Shown one piece after another: positions 2,226 through 63,966 of a stretch of 64,000 nt of DNA. The notes under the pieces were generated by a model. The model saw only the letters and a program-made list of their open reading frames with translations, did no database searches and was not told the DNA's origin. The stretch comes from Octopus vulgaris (taxonomy: Eukaryota). The position numbers were made by a program, and so were the translations under genes. The DNA lies in contig OX597815.1 in NCBI GenBank assembly GCA_951406725.2, positions 105,834,001 through 105,898,000 on the forward strand, given 5' to 3'. Every line of letters starts with the position of its first letter. The stretch's first letter is position 1.

Positions 2226-2291
2226 TAAACTTCAAACTACTTATGAAGAAGAGAAGGTACTCAACTGCAAATACAAGACAGATTTAACAGG
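2226..2291 (+). CDS. CCDC171: CCDC171-like coiled-coil protein, internal exon (first in window)
   Basis: Pyrimidine tract + ttccag acceptor, gtaag donor. Reads KLQTTYEEEKVLNCKYKTDLT(G). Ends in phase 2, matching the phase-2 start of the exon at 7930. Confidence 0.7.
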
Positions 2292-2661
2292 GTAAGATTT
2301 TTTTATGGGAAGGTCACTTTTGTATTTATTAATCTATAGATAGGGGTTTGAAACACAGGTCACATCTGGTTTGTACTTGCAGCGGACTGTAGCTGTTGGC
2401 TTAGCTCCAGATCAACCCTGATCTAGCAAGCTATGATGAAAGGCCTTTTTATTTCTTCAGAGAATTTTGCCTCTTATATCCAGTAGGTAGATTAACACTT
2501 TATAGGTTAGTAAACTGAGAAAGAAAACATTGATAGAAAGCGAGTTTTGGGTGAGTGAAAAAAAAGTTGAGCATAGCATTCAGAGTGGCTTCTGAGGAAT
2601 CATATGTAAAATATGGATTATTAAAGATAATAAGGTGAATCAATTAGTGGTACCCTAATGT

Positions 2662-2688
<27 letters not shown>

Positions 2689-2693
<5 letters not shown>

Positions 2694-3160
2694 GATTAGG
2701 GCTCAGTAAAATAATTTACTTTGCCACATACTGAAATTTTTAGAAATAGCAGCCAAAAAGTTTTTTTAGCCATTTCTACTACTTTAAGAAGAGTCTCCCA
2801 GATAGTGTATACTCAAAAATAATTCACGTAGATATGGAGGGAAAACACCAAAATATCACATGTACAAAGATATGTGATATGTACATGTGATATTTTGGTG
2901 TTTTCCCTCCATATCTACGTGAATTATTTTTGAGTATACACTATCTGGGAGACTCTTCTTAAAGTAGTAGAAATGGCTAAAAAAACTTTTTGGCTGCTGT
3001 TTCTAAAAGTTTCGGTGTGTGGCGGAGTAAATTGTTTTACTGAGCCCTAATTATATAACGTAATATTTTGAATACACCTTGAATGGTCCTTTTACATACT
3101 GAACACTACTTGGTGAAATTAATTAATAATTAATTGATTTTACCCTTAATCATTGATTAT
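2689..3160. mobile_element. Fold-back element in (TA)n, probable Penelope-like inverted terminus
   Basis: Arms 2689-2866 and 2880-3057, 13-nt loop, no indels; the right arm continues ~100 nt to another TA run. The Penelope assignment is inferred from the inverted-truncation architecture and TA targeting. Confidence 0.6.
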
Positions 3161-3170
3161 ATACATATAG

Positions 3171-3944
3171 GGAACCCGTGGAAGAGGTAGACCAAGGAAA
3201 ACCTGGGACGAGGTGGTGAAGCACGACCTTCGAACGTTAGGTCTCACCATGGAAACGACTAGAGACCGAGACCTATGGAAGTATGCTGTGCGTGAGAAGA
3301 CCCGGCAAGACTAGTGAAGCCATAACCTGTGGCCCCTACCTGGGACGTAGTCAGTCCACCTGTGCATACCTTCCTGCTTGTGACACTTGTGAAGACCTGT
3401 TGAGGCAAATCAAATCAAAGTCAAATCGAATCAAGTCAAACCAAATCAAAATAGATGAACATCAATGGAATTTGTATCCTTGTGGTACCAGTGCCGGTGG
3501 CACATAAGAAAACCATCCAAACGGGACCGTAGCCAGTACCGAATCGACTGGCCTCCGTGCCGTGGGCACGTAACAAACACCATCCAATCGTAGCCGTTCG
3601 CCAGCCTCGTCTGGCACCTGTGTCGGTGGCACATAAGAAAAACACCGAAAACACCATATCCGAGCGTGGCCGTCTGCCTGCCTTGTCTGGCACCTGTGTT
3701 GGTGGCACATAAAAAACACCATCCGAGCGTGGCCGTCTGCCAGCCTCGTCTGGCACCTGTGTCGGTGGCACATAAAATCACCCACTACACTCTCGGAGTG
3801 GTTGGCGTTAGGAAGGGCATCCAGCTGTAGAAACACTGCCAGATCTGACTGGCCTGGTGTAGCCTTCGGGCTTGCCAGACCCCAGTTGAACCGTCCAACC
3901 CATGCTAGCATGGAAAGCAGACGTTAAACGATGATGATGATGAT
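3171..3944 (+). mobile_element. Young 5'-truncated RTE-clade LINE: ORF C-terminus, 3'UTR with tandem repeats, (GAT)n tail
   Basis: 3171-3314 reads GTRGRGRPRKTWDEVVKHDLRTLGL...RDRDLWKYAV* (RTE C-terminal signature). CpG-rich; ~4 tandem 60-75 nt units at 3488-3780; gatgatgat tail. Confidence 0.88.
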
Positions 3945-7929: not shown

Positions 7930-8068
7930 ACTTCGAGAGGAATTATCTCTAATTCAGAGCAAGATGACAACTGAATTGAATAACAAAAACTCTGTAATTC
8001 ACACAATGTCCAAGGAAACAGAAATACACCTTAAAAACTTCCATAAACTGAAAGATGAACTATCAAAG
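7930..8068 (+). CDS. CCDC171: CCDC171-like exon
   Basis: tttttgcag acceptor, gtatgt donor. LREELSLIQSKMTTELNNKNSVIHTMSKETEIHLKNFHKLKDELSK, heptad-like; phase 2 to 0. Confidence 0.85.
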
Positions 8069-12159: not shown

Positions 12160-12692
12160 CAGTGTGAACCTTTATATAGCTTGCGTCCCATTAGCTCATG
12201 AGGGAAAATAACCATTGAACAGCAAGCACCAAAATTCAAAGCGGTTTGAGTATATATAAACATACAATAAGATATCATAACAATAAATTAATATTCTGAT
12301 ATATTAAATACGCTATCATATAGGTGGCTAAAGCAATTAAAAATCAAAAAGGTAGAATACCTAAATAAGAGTGCAAAATAGCACCTACAATTGCTAGAAA
12401 TAAGAGCTAAAAAATATAACTTGAATAGCCACACAAAATCACCAACCTCATGAGATATTCAAAGGGACTCTGAGGAGCAAGCCACATCTTTCTCCAGCGA
12501 GATAAAACTCACTGAATGAAGTAATTTGAAGTATTTTTTACCTCTTATTTCTAGCAATTGTAGGTGCTATTTTGCACCCTTATTTATGAATTCTTCCTTT
12601 TTGGTTTTTAATTGCTTTAGCCACCTATATTATAACGTATTTAATATATCATATTGACTTATCATTATAATATCTTATTGTATGTTTATATA
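12160..12692 (-). mobile_element. Older fold-back element in microsatellite, probable Penelope-like inverted terminus
   Basis: Inverted arms ~12253-12418 and ~12531-12692 with scattered mismatches; decayed hammerhead-like motif on the - strand at ~12170-12207. Confidence 0.55.
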
Positions 12693-24431: not shown

Positions 24432-25903
24432 CAGTGGGGGGAAATAAATATTTGTACATGTCAAAATTCTTTATTTATCTAATTTCTAATGAACATAAAT
24501 GGGATATACCAATACTATATTTGCATACACATGCATGCATAAACTAAGAATATGTAAAAGAAACTAATAAATTATAGTAACTAAGGAATTTATATACAAT
24601 CATAAATATTTAGGGGTGAAAAAAGTATTCGTACAGAATAAATTTATGATTTTTTTTATGCCACAAAATACTGTTAAAATAATATTTTTTTACTAGAACT
24701 TTCTCATTTGTTCCAATAATCTTATCAGTTGTCATTTTTAAGTGCCAAAACGCTAGCTTCTTCATTCAGCGCTGAGACAACATAAAGTACTACCGTAATA
24801 ATGGCAAAAAGTAAAGAACTCACAAATACAGTGAAAAACTCAATTATTGAACAGTGGAAAGCAGGTAAAAATTACAGGAAAATATCAGAGACCCTTTATA
24901 TTCCATTTTCTACCACATCTTCATTTATTCAAAGATATAAAAAATCAGGAACTGTTGAAAACAGAATATGATCCAGTGCACCATGCAAGATTTCCCCTAG
25001 ATCTTTAAGAAAAATGAAGTGAAGAATCGAAAAAAACACAATGATCACCAGAAAGGAGTTATAAGAAGATTTGTTAGCTTCAGGGACTAGTGTTACACTA
25101 TGAACAATAGCAATGGACTTCATAGGAATGAACTGAAGTCACACTCTCCTAGAAAAACTCCGCTGTTGACTAAAAGGCATAGAGATGCCCGTTTAAAATT
25201 TGTTTATGAACATAAAGATAAACCTGATACATTCTGGGAAAATGTTCTATGGACAGACGAGTCGAAAATTGAATTGTTTGGAAGAAATTTGCGTAGCCAT
25301 GTTTGGAGGAAAGATGGTACTGCCTATTCGCCGAAAAACACAATTCCTACCATGAAGTTTGGAGGTGGAAACATCATGGTGTTGGGGTGTTTATCTGCAA
25401 ATGGTACTGGCAATTTACATGTGATAGATAGTAGAATGAATGCAGAGATGTACCAAAATATTTTTAACAATAATTTATGGGACTCTGCAGAAAAGCTCCA
25501 GCTTTGTGAAGGGTGGGTTTTAAAACAGGATAACAACCCTAAGCACACGGCAAAGTCTACCAAAAAATGGATTGTCGATCACAATATAAAATTATCAGAA
25601 TGGCCAAGCCAGTCACCTGACTTGAACCCCAGTGAAAATTTGTGGCATTATTTTAAAATTAAAATTCATTCAAGAGCCCCAATGTGCATTGCAGATTTGA
25701 AGAAAATTTGTCAAGGAGAATGGGAAAAAATTCCTAAAGAAACATGCAAGTCATTGATTAAGAACTACAAGAAGAGATTGGTTGAAGTGGAACTGAATAA
25801 TGGTTATGCTACGAAGTATTAAATCAGAATTATCAGTTATTTATGTTCTGTACGAATACTTTTTTCACCCCTAAATATTTATAATTTTATATAAATTCCT
25901 TAG
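24432..25903 (+). mobile_element. Tc1 IR/DR-type transposon with DD34E transposase pseudogene, right TIR truncated
   Basis: TA-cagtggggg terminus; inner repeat 24611-24640 mirrored at 25842-25873. ATG 24801 MAKSKEL with stops/frameshift; 25100-25822 has WTDESK, QDNNPKH, SPDLNPSENLW. Confidence 0.93.
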
Positions 25904-52240: not shown

Positions 52241-53437
52241 GTGTAGTATACTGCTGGGAACTGTACTGTAACACACCCTTTCACCATCTGTATTTGCCAT
52301 CTGTAAATTATGGTTCAGCTTAACAACCCTATAAACTTCAAGGATTAAAATATCAAGTGATGTTTACCTTCTGCTCAGTCTAACCTAATCCTTGTGTCAT
52401 CATCAATAGTGAGATCTGAGCAAAATGCTATACTATTGTTGTCTGAGTCACTTTAATTTAGATAAGGAGAAAATATAAAACTACTTTTACTCTTTCTAAC
52501 AAACAGATGGATTCATGTTGCTCAAAAAAAATTAGTGTGTGGACCATTTATGTTTTGTAACCCCATATTATTTTGGTATGCTTTTTAATTAAGTGCTGAT
52601 ACCAATGAAGACTGAGGTACACTTTTCACACATTTTTAATCCTTCTGAGATAACATTTTGTGAGCCACTGATTAAATGGGGTACTTTTATCTTTTGTCCA
52701 CAAAGGCAATACTTGTTAGTTTTCCACAGGAGAGTTGCTTTTCTTCATAAAATCTGAATTGAGTCTGTCTTATCAGGCAGTCACCAGAATATATTCTCTT
52801 TCTCTCTTCAAACTTTCTTTGCACCATCAATTTCAGTATTTATCATTCATCAAGCCTTTTTTTAATCTCTTTAATTCCATCTGAGAAATGACATTTTCTT
52901 TTGCTCTCTTTTTAAGTGTGCTTTATATTTGCCGCTATCATTAATGCTATCCGTATCTCGGTTGGCAGCAGCTATTATATACTGAATTAATCATTCTTTG
53001 TTATCTGCATAATATAAATCTAAGCTTTGTTCCTTTTCATTCACTAAACATTTTGTTCATCATACATTAAAATCCTTCTTCAATTTTATGTCATTACAAA
53101 TCACATTGTACAGCAGTTCAAGTCTGTTATACGTTGCCATAGTATTTTAGTATACCTATCTAACATAACCATAAACCATAGGTAAATTAGTACTAACACA
53201 TTCAATGTATTTAATGGTAATGTATTTAATATATTTTGTTGTCTGGGGAGAGTCATAGTGCCTTAATATAATTTCCACTCATTCATTTATTTATTTATTC
53301 CAGAAAGCTTTATTGTCACCATATTTGCAGCAATATCAATGGATTTTGACTGATGGTCCATTATTAAAGCCGTGTTCATTTTTTTTTTTTTTGCTTTTGA
53401 TTTGTTTACTTTTGTGAGATTTTGATGCATGATCTTG

Positions 53438-53475
<38 letters not shown>

Positions 53476-53554
53476 ACATGCCAGCATGCATATGTGCTTA
53501 TGTATATATATATATATGTATATTATGCTATATATTATGCTATATGTATATTAT

Positions 53555-54929
53555 GCTATCCGAATTGACAGTACCTTGGTAGTTAAAGCCATCAAGAGTA
53601 TGAATGCAGGGAAAGCCCCAGGCCCATCAGGAATCACTGCAGAGATGCTCAAAATATCTGGCAGTGTTGGCTATAGCCTAGTCACCCGTATAGTTAACCA
53701 GGTGATACACGAAGGAGTCATACCCAATGACTGGTGTAGCAGCATAATAGTCAACTGCTACAAAGGTAAAGGTGATGCTCTAGATACAAATAATTACAGA
53801 GGTATCAAGTTGTTGGATCAAGTAATGAAGGTCACGGAGAGGGTCATAGCCCAACTAATTAGAGAGAGAGTCAGTTTAGATGAGATGCAGTTTGGGTTCG
53901 TGCCAGGGAAAAGCACCACTGATGCTATATTCCTGGTAAGACAGCTGCAGGAGAAATACCTAGCCAAAGATAAACCTCTGTACCTGGCTTTCATTGATAT
54001 GGAGAAAGCTTTTGACACGGTCCCCCAATCCCTTATCTGGTGGTCAATGAGGAAACTAGGGCTAGATGAATGGTTAGTGAGAGCTGTGCAAGCCATGTAC
54101 AGGGACGCTGTCAGTAAAGTGAGGTTTGGCAATGAGTACAGTGAAGAATTCCAGGTAGAGGTAGCAGTCCACCAAGGTTCAGCCCTCAGCCCCCTCCTAT
54201 TTATCATAGTCCTCCAGGCAATAATGGAGGAATTCAAGACAGGATACCTCTGGGAGCTCCTCTATGCTGATGACCTTGCTCTAATTGCTGAGTCACTATC
54301 AGAACTGGAGGAGAAGTTTCAGGTGTGGAAGCAAGGATTAGAATCGAAGGGCCTTAGAGTCAACCTAGCTAAAACCAAAGTCCTAATAAGTAGGAAGGTA
54401 GTCAAATCACAAATGCCTTCAGGTAGATGGCCCTGCTCGATCTGTAGAAAAGGCGTTGGTAGAAACTCTATAAGGTGCACCAAGTGTAAGCTATGGACAC
54501 ATAAGAGGTGCAGCAATGTCAAAGGAAGGCTAACTAGGAAGATAGTTTTTGTATGTGGCAGATGTTCAGGAGCAATAAACACTGAAAATGCGCAGAGACC
54601 AACTTCTGCCACATTCCAGGGAGAAAAACTAGAAGTAGATGATAGCTTCCATTACCTTGGTGACCGAGTCAGTAGCGGGGGCGGGTGTGCTGAAAGTGTA
54701 ACTGCTAGAGTAAGAATAGCCTGGGCAAAGTTCAGAGAGCTCTTACCTCTACTGGTGACAAAAGGCCTCTCATAAAAAGTGGCACGTAAAAAGTACCCAC
54801 TACACTCACGGAGTGGTTGGCATTAGGAAGGGCATCCAGCTGTAGAAACACTGCCAGATCAGACTGGGCCTGGTGCAGCCTCCTGGCTTCCCAGACCCCA
54901 GTTGAACCATCCAACCCATGATGATGATG
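53555..54929 (+). mobile_element. RTE LINE fragment with open RT + PHD-like region, spliced onto 3' tail
   Basis: KAPGPSG, NYRGIKLL, QFGF, FIDMEKAFD, HQGSALSPLLF, LYADDL, then CSIC...C..C...H..C...C..C. The frame ends at 54775, where the sequence jumps to the 3'UTR and (GAT)n. The N-terminal VCVC part of the ORF call is microsatellite. Confidence 0.93.
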
Positions 54930-62534: not shown

Positions 62535-63966
62535 GTAAATTTTTTCAAAAATTTTATATCATTGTTGTCTTTTAAAAAAAGAAACATATTTAACTTGAAA
62601 TAATATAATGTGCTGCATATTACCTCATTCCCCCCATCAAATTGACATTGCTTACATTCCAAACATGAGTAATGAATGTCTTATTGAACTAGGATTTTCA
62701 ATAAAGAAAAAATTTTAACTTTATTTATATTGTTAAATAAATTAATACTGTAAATTAATAGTGCAGAACTATATTATGAATTAGATTTTATGCTTGTTAG
62801 GCATATATTAAAATTTTTTATTTGGTCATGTGCCTATAAAAGCTCATACCTCAATGGTTAGGTGTTGCACTCACAACTGTTAGATCATGGGTTCAATTCC
62901 CAGACTGAGCAGTGCAGTGCACTGCATTCTTGAGCAAAACACTTCATTTCACATTGCTCTGCAATCTTTTCAACATCAGCATCCATTTTGACATGGTTTC
63001 TGCAGCTGGATACCCTCCATAATGCCAACCACTTTACTGAGTGTACTGGGTGCTTTTTTTCATAGTACCTCCACTAGTGAGGTTGCTTTGCAACTTGAAA
63101 GACTAAAGGGCATAAAAAGCCTCTGATAAATGGAGGGGAATAGAAGGGAGAGGGTGTATTATGATTTTAGGGAAGGTAATGAGAAGAGTATAATTAAGTA
63201 TAATGAGAAGAGTGGCTGGAGTGATAGTGGAGTGAGTAACAGAATAGACACTTTTGGCAGAGAGAGAATGGAAAGAAACAGGGAAAGGGATTAGTGTCAG
63301 TTGTTAGTGAAAAAGGGAAGGACAGAATAGTAAGGATGATGAAGTGTGTTATATAAGAAAGGGTTCCAGGCTGTCCCATCTCAGTGGGATTCAAATTCAG
63401 AGTGCAGAAAGTTAAAAGGAATACCACAGGGCATTCTATCTGGTGCTCTAATGATTCTGCTAATTCACTGGCTTTGTAGGTATTACTCTTCTGTCCAATA
63501 TCTAGCAAAGACTTGTACAGAAAGGCTACTGTCTCAGAATATATGATAATCTAAAAATTTCTTCAAACTTAGATTAATTGAACTTCTCTAAAGTCACGCT
63601 GTATGGCTCAAATAGACTATTTTCAGCAATTAAGGGAGCCTCTATACAATCACTTATTCTGCTAGAAATAGCTGCCAAATCTCCTTCAAAATACTCCCTA
63701 CTGTGTTTTAAAAAATGTAGGACATGTGGAATAATGCACCTTCTGTCAAAGATGAATGCATTTGATCATGTGTCTGCTATGATAATAGGCCTAACCTCAG
63801 GCTAAATAACAACAACTCACAGTATTTATTTCAAGTAATTAGTAGGGAATTTCTTTTCCCTCTAATTCTTTTATCATCATCATCATCATCATCATCATCG
63901 CTATTATTATTTTTGCGCTCATGGCAATAGTGTGAACATACACATTTCTTTCTTTGATGTTCACAG

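Follow-up and report, generated by a model that had tools for sequence, protein, structure and literature searches.

How does a nearly perfect hairpin come to carry seven clustered A-to-G changes in only one of its two arms? The hairpin in question lies in an intron of the Octopus vulgaris genome, within the window, by which we mean the whole 64-kb stretch of DNA that was analyzed and to which all positions below refer unless another locus is named. A preliminary description had reported an indel-free pairing of 178 bp with eight G:T mismatches, and re-deriving the structure gave an identical result: the arms 2689-2866 and 2880-3057 form 178 pairs with no indels (position i opposite position 5746-i), the stretch 2880-2998 pairs perfectly with the opposite arm, and all eight mismatches are G:T, with G2694 opposite T3052 and the other seven placing a right-arm G opposite a left-arm T at 2999, 3009, 3014, 3017, 3024, 3025, and 3034. 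This hairpin (2689-3057) is the longest close inverted repeat within the window, and its plus strand is predicted to fold into a single stem of -298.9 kcal/mol. The 13-nt loop is made up of the last 5 nt of the left arm copy (2867-2871) and a short insert, and the junction sequence across it occurs once in the assembly. The element continues to 3157, beyond the paired arm, and the whole right arm (2880-3157) corresponds to positions 288-566 of the repeat unit described below.

Features of the hairpin locus, in window coordinates
Feature	Position	Strand	Unit positions or remark
CCDC171 exon upstream of the hairpin	2226-2291	+	Next exon at 7931-8068
(TG/TA)n microsatellite at the left insertion junction	2660-2688		Short TA run after End A at 3158
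Antisense (End B) arm of the retrozyme-like element	2689-2871	-	Unit positions 283-466
Eighth A>G, at 6 nt from the TA-run junction on the left	2694	+	Same state in 1 other of 193 loci
Junction insert, 8 nt, copy of 2885-2892	2872-2879	+	From sequence
Sense (End A) arm, paired part	2880-3057	+	Unit positions 288-465
A>T common to both arms (partner 2809)	2937	+	18-mer found in these two arms only
Seven derived A>G, clustered	2999-3034	+	2999, 3009, 3014, 3017, 3024, 3025, 3034
Sense-arm 3' tail, unpaired, as far as End A	3058-3157	+	Zero private A>G

The host gene is CCDC171, of which tblastn located ten plus-strand exons in the window (2226-62533) and one more upstream, with a 99% match to the Octopus sinensis protein; two residues in the exons at 2226 and 62015 depart from that protein. 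Lying in an intron and on the same strand as its host, the hairpin will be transcribed if the gene is expressed, and it follows that the host and element RNAs run on the same strand. Another CCDC171 intron holds a second fold-back (12297-12651) with 120-bp arms and a 115-nt spacer, which belongs to a different family with a faintly similar end. Just to the right of the hairpin, a 63-nt tandem repeat of 2.9 copies lies inside another repeat (3575-3777). Elsewhere in the window are open frames at 53426-54772 and 25091-25819 that by our reading resemble a fragment of a non-LTR reverse transcriptase and a fragment of a Tc1-type transposase, respectively.

The repeat family matched by the left arm is dispersed in the octopus genome in hundreds of copies (the best 40 of 2294 candidates were scored, and exact-pattern counts ranged from 64 to 243). 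We aligned 364 segments from 199 loci to one natural unit of 566 nt; picking loci by pattern biases this sample against divergent copies and would miss heavily edited members. Units occur in head-to-tail tandem arrays with a period of ∼565 nt, and GC content over the aligned columns is ∼30%, below the 45-50% ceiling used for retrozymes. One strand of the unit carries a type I hammerhead motif whose core is intact in 69 of 96 distinct sequences and whose helices I to III pair in 87 to 95 of 91 to 96, with two helix II pairs that vary with compensation. Rfam matched no hammerhead family to these sequences and returned only miRNA-like matches to hairpins and microsatellites. The hammerhead-bearing strand is likely the RNA strand, which in the right arm is the plus strand of the window. 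Cleavage is predicted at unit position 274/275, and segment 5' ends pile up modestly just after it (28 of 296, against 8 and 14 in the adjoining bins), which hints at hammerhead self-cleavage. The window's copy itself ends before reaching the motif, its left arm stopping 8 nt and its right arm 13 nt downstream of the predicted cut.

Insertions of this family have two fixed 3' ends: End A in 208 of 364 segments and End B, ∼90 nt upstream, in 124 of 364. End A leads into a TA run in 156 of 197 cases and into the next unit in 22 of 197; End B leads into a TA run in 79 of 85. At all 97 of 97 inverted junctions the 3' ends point outward. The Penelope-like build that had been suggested for the hairpin is thus borne out in its parts, namely, the hammerhead, the inverted 5'-truncated arm, the tail, and the TA targets. 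Among those open reading frames of 80 loci that were listed, none for a reverse transcriptase or endonuclease is tied to the unit. We take the element to be a hammerhead-bearing and likely nonautonomous Penelope-type repeat. Two loci (L148 and L173) have identical inversion junction coordinates (365/357) and are possibly one fold-back that was re-copied whole.

The direction of the changes is given by the family. All seven sites, and 2694 too, are A in close relatives, in agreement with the A>G polarity first proposed, and every other segment compared, in a set biased toward the query, carries the left-arm base at all seven sites. By this comparison, each of the eight changes is a derived A>G on the strand predicted for both the element RNA and the host RNA. 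Decay of CpG in the left arm, which had been limited from the start to two sites, fits only 3014 and 3024 and is rejected for the cluster as a whole, the close relatives carrying the left-arm base. The related motif once cited in this connection (63663-63679) is a 17-nt match with E = 0.25, which is a chance match and no family copy; no relatives of the element beyond chance occur elsewhere in the window.

A chance origin of the cluster at the background rate is excluded: at the family's private A>G rate of 0.0055, the probability of at least 7 changes among 16 As is 1.7e-12. Paired columns number 120 or more in 31 of the 85 hairpins found in the family, and among these the window's hairpin alone is dominated by G:T mismatches. 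When the G-bearing arm served as query, none of the best 40 of 1052 candidates, which were the ones scored, exceeded 94% identity, and the assembly contains no match within 3 mismatches of 3009-3034. Four scans with degenerate patterns showed no second cluster among the matches listed (100 of 179, 100 of 243, 100 of 126, and 64 of 64); the most Gs seen elsewhere among those matches was three, two of them subfamily states. G3034 in its own context occurs at one other locus, and both G3025 and G3034 are near-singletons. Two segments were considered as second edited copies and rejected: L229 is a divergent segment whose neighbors stand at 88%, and the pattern in L165 (4 of 6, p = 0.003) is lost after 353 tests. 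We note of the latter that its four A>G changes (L165:1156-1205) fall within 50 nt in the End A tail, directly after a small internal duplication.

The cluster is not part of a family-wide trend. The general A>G excess that the preliminary description had named as a test of its reading is absent, with 135 A>G in 24,909 A against 161 T>C in 31,284 T (p = 0.68) across 353 of 364 segments, the 9 high-rate segments and both arms of the window's hairpin being left out. When segments are split by 3' end, End A shows 89 A>G against 80 T>C and End B shows 39 against 65 (Fisher, 0.018), a division that is post hoc, is partly due to locus picking, and leans weakly in the direction expected of lightly edited fold-back transcripts. 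Sequence context adds nothing to the case for ADAR, contrary to the earlier argument that no changed A follows a G: a 5' G is found at none of the 7 changed As, but also at none of the 16 As available in 2999-3039, so the comparison has no power to detect ADAR depletion. The A of the AAG site at 3026 is unchanged.

The geometry of related hairpins bears on how one arm alone could be altered. Of 63 hairpins that join an End A arm to an End B arm, 31 have an End B arm whose 5' reach exceeds that of the End A arm by 10 nt or more, which means that neither arm was copied from the other; with the arms separately templated in many hairpins, one arm alone can carry edits. In the window's hairpin the left arm extends 5 nt further 5' in unit coordinates than the right arm. 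Fold-back copying of a single cDNA is rejected on that 5-nt extension and on the expectation that the Gs would appear in both arms. Routine homogenization of one arm by the other is rejected as well, the inner and outer halves of other hairpins showing equal numbers of differences (94 against 94). Private changes common to both arms number 25 against 128 that are arm specific, and from these two comparisons we read the A>T shared by 2937 and 2809 as a mark of common source rather than of later conversion. No parent with this A>T or with the same junction is present in the assembly, and re-copying of a whole edited hairpin from a parent is rejected on the uniqueness of both.

We consider the best explanation to be that the right arm was reverse-transcribed from an ADAR-edited fold-back transcript and that seven A-to-I edits were fixed as G, and we put the probability of this reading at roughly 0.55. 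The source would be a sister fold-back whose sense arm is long and whose antisense arm is short; its transcript would be double stranded only near unit positions 370-475, and there ADAR would edit the sense strand. A variant is that the RNA was edited while paired with the first cDNA. Six sampled fold-backs have this form, with an antisense arm over ∼370-475, and one of them (L138) is a near neighbor of the right arm. The Gs are confined to the part that such sister fold-backs pair, with none in the tail. Editing of the unit's own fold is a poorer fit, four of the seven sites being predicted unpaired, which would make it a poor substrate alone. We infer the remaining steps of pairing, editing, twin priming, and joining as follows. 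The hammerhead would cut the RNA at 274/275, and a Penelope-type reverse transcriptase supplied in trans would prime twice at a TA target, copying the edited RNA from End A and, from End B, an unedited unit of the same source. Both reverse-transcription runs would end just short of the hammerhead cut, and the two cDNAs would be joined via the 8-nt templated insert. Of the reading with which the preliminary description had closed, the integration of an edited transcript, the derived A>G on the RNA strand stands, and the copying of the hairpin as a whole gives way before the unique junction and the frequent separate templating of arms.

A second family of retroelements, with no match to the 566-nt unit, provides a much stronger case than the window's hairpin. 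At one locus (L257:2219-2639, G000:C2:154.95 Mb), a 201-bp hairpin contains 73 G:T pairs and 5 other mismatches, about half of its As having turned to G on both arms, and, set against unedited copies, the left arm shows A replaced by G at 47 sites and the reverse at 0. A second locus 31 Mb away (L258, G000:C2:186.23 Mb) has 51 Gs in common with it where unedited copies have 5, and 46 derived Gs are common to the two. That such distant loci share derived Gs speaks for inherited DNA and against local error. The existence of edited, re-copied retroelement hairpins in the octopus genome is therefore supported in the form of this family. This result raised our odds for an edited template at the window's hairpin from about 0.35 to the present value and does not prove editing at that locus.

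An error of the assembly is an unlikely source of the cluster, though several points favor it. The second arm of a near-perfect hairpin could have been misread by long reads and polishing could have failed in the repeat; passages of PMC7229812 describe a fall in Nanopore accuracy in the second arm of inverted duplications, part of PMC2873906 describes how systematic clustered errors can enter reference sequences, and the cluster is a singleton. The skipped bases that PMC7229812 describes in the part cited have no counterpart here, where indels are absent. Paired arms elsewhere in the assembly are not error-rich, with 11.6 and 13.1 private changes per kb against 13.5 in unpaired sequence, a comparison that leaves out deletions, whose count for paired columns is zero by construction. 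None of the 30 other long hairpins has such a cluster, including four of the same sequence and geometry (L004, L066, L121, and L124). We also compared read contigs from four DNA runs (X1, X2, X4, and X7) at 97% likeness; among the runs listed as containing the sequence there was no RNA run. Cover is absent from 3004-3029 in X1 and from 3004-3016 in X4; in X2 and X7 short records give some cover, with no contig listed across the cluster. The contigs equally lack the shared 2937 variant, that is, single-copy variants are dropped, and they therefore neither confirm nor exclude the Gs. An exact 76-nt contig in X2 (3132-3207) spans End A and its flank, from which the insertion is present in that run.

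Two further explanations seem to us very unlikely. The first is write-back in place, in which the CCDC171 pre-mRNA folds into the same hairpin, is edited, and repairs its own locus via cDNA, or in which the target of ADAR is the DNA strand of an R-loop. The intronic, plus-strand position of the hairpin and its predicted fold suit this idea, as does the fact that all 8 changes, G2694 of the other arm included, are A>G on the host transcript. RNA-templated repair is rare, however. If edits fell evenly over the 124 paired As, the probability that 7 of 8 would lie within 36 nt is 2.5e-5, which is a harsh null for a processive enzyme, and the second CCDC171 fold-back shows 8 mismatches of mixed type, just 1 of them G:T.

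Template switching or gene conversion from another subfamily with G at the same sites is the other, and here the case is built on shared states. At unascertained loci, G3009 is found in 59 of 173, G3017 in 31 of 173, G3014 in 9 of 173, and G3024 in 4 of 175; an older subfamily has G2999 and T at 2937 among its states (the G2999 subfamily having been found by searching for that state); and none of the seven changes disrupts the unit's predicted fold, three converting A-U to G-U and four falling in loops. Yet the nearest haplotype differs at 5 sites, no stretch elsewhere falls within the 3-mismatch limit given above, and G3025 and G3034 are, as noted, near-singletons. The right arm also lacks the diagnostic non-G differences of those subfamilies, and the overlap of four Gs (3009, 3014, 3017, and 3024) with other-subfamily states has P = 0.10.

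More remote still is a short patch of error-prone synthesis during insertion or hairpin repair, by a polymerase eta-like enzyme or a burst of reverse transcriptase error: clustered A>G at TA and AA is a known polymerase eta signature, 5 of the 7 changed sites have a 5' A or T, and the 8-nt junction insert suggests end-joining repair, but an A or T lies 5' of 14 of the 16 As in the stretch regardless, a change of 7 of 16 As in one patch with nothing else altered is far above such enzymes' usual rates, and no comparable cluster of any other change type occurs in 353 segments.

The family resembles two groups of known elements. Animal non-LTR retrozymes are described in passages of PMC7229834 and bioRxiv 10.64898/2026.07.22.740005 as AT-rich units in tandem that each contain a type I hammerhead, and are proposed there to be nonautonomous Penelope-like derivatives; the window's family is likewise tandem and AT-rich with a type I hammerhead in each unit. 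Its 566-nt unit is larger than the 150 to 450 bp quoted for retrozymes, a soft limit given that a passage of PMC7229834 also mentions circles of up to >1000 nt, and, unlike the non-LTR retrozymes so described, most copies here are partial and many are fold-backs. The retrozyme passages of the same two sources mention no edited genomic copies and raise editing only as one explanation of RNA heterogeneity. For Penelope-like elements, inverted 5'-truncated copies with an optional tail and TA targets are described in part of PMC8557442, and two reverse-transcription start sites bounding the tail in part of PMC11167929. The octopus family shares the two fixed 3' ends, the TA flanks, and the outward orientation of 3' ends at inverted junctions, with a tail of ∼90 nt against 30 to 40 nt in the elements described there.

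Editing-type changes have been carried into DNA in other systems. According to a passage of PMC11702581, when human L1 generates pseudogene insertions in cultured cells, these can have clustered ADAR-type changes in the inverted-repeat part only. Both cases involve clustered editing-type changes in retro-copied RNA; the L1 case is somatic and induced (3 of 235 insertions), whereas here the affected insertion is natural and is that of the mobile element itself, with changes in one arm and Gs taken from the assembly. Avian retroviruses hyperedited from A to G (Felder 1994; Hajjar and Linial 1995, as cited in a passage of PMC8586724) likewise carry ADAR changes through reverse transcription into DNA, there in a retrovirus and here in a noncoding ribozyme element of a mollusc. 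APOBEC-edited LTR retrotransposons have clustered, one-directional, strand-biased, and fossilized changes; in the part of PMC4866542 that describes them, the edits are G>A, made on cDNA, and limited to vertebrates, in contrast to A>G here, and the screen used invertebrates as negative controls and required at least 10 clustered changes, a number that the window's locus falls below. Cephalopod editing outside neurons is described in a passage of PMC9068888 as targeting repeats and introns. Among the papers listed by our searches of the open-access literature, none dealt with germline fixation of ADAR edits in cephalopod retroelements.

The window's hairpin is a weak, single instance of a real-looking process; with seven sites in one copy it is small evidence by itself, and the L257/L258 family is the stronger test case. 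It is possible, if doubtful, that octopus ADAR acts more generally as a germline mutagen of Penelope-type elements and retrozymes: fold-back insertions would yield double-stranded RNA for it to edit, twin priming would carry the edits into a single arm of the following insertion, and the Gs that mark subfamilies may then be old edits. Were that so, this locus would be a fresh snapshot of a single round, with an unedited control in its other arm. The unedited partner arm also informs how Penelope-type elements build inverted insertions, pointing to two separate templates. If real, the cluster would be the RNA-level counterpart of APOBEC-edited retroelements, in which a temporary RNA edit has been made heritable DNA by way of a ribozyme-bearing retroelement, in animals best known for editing.
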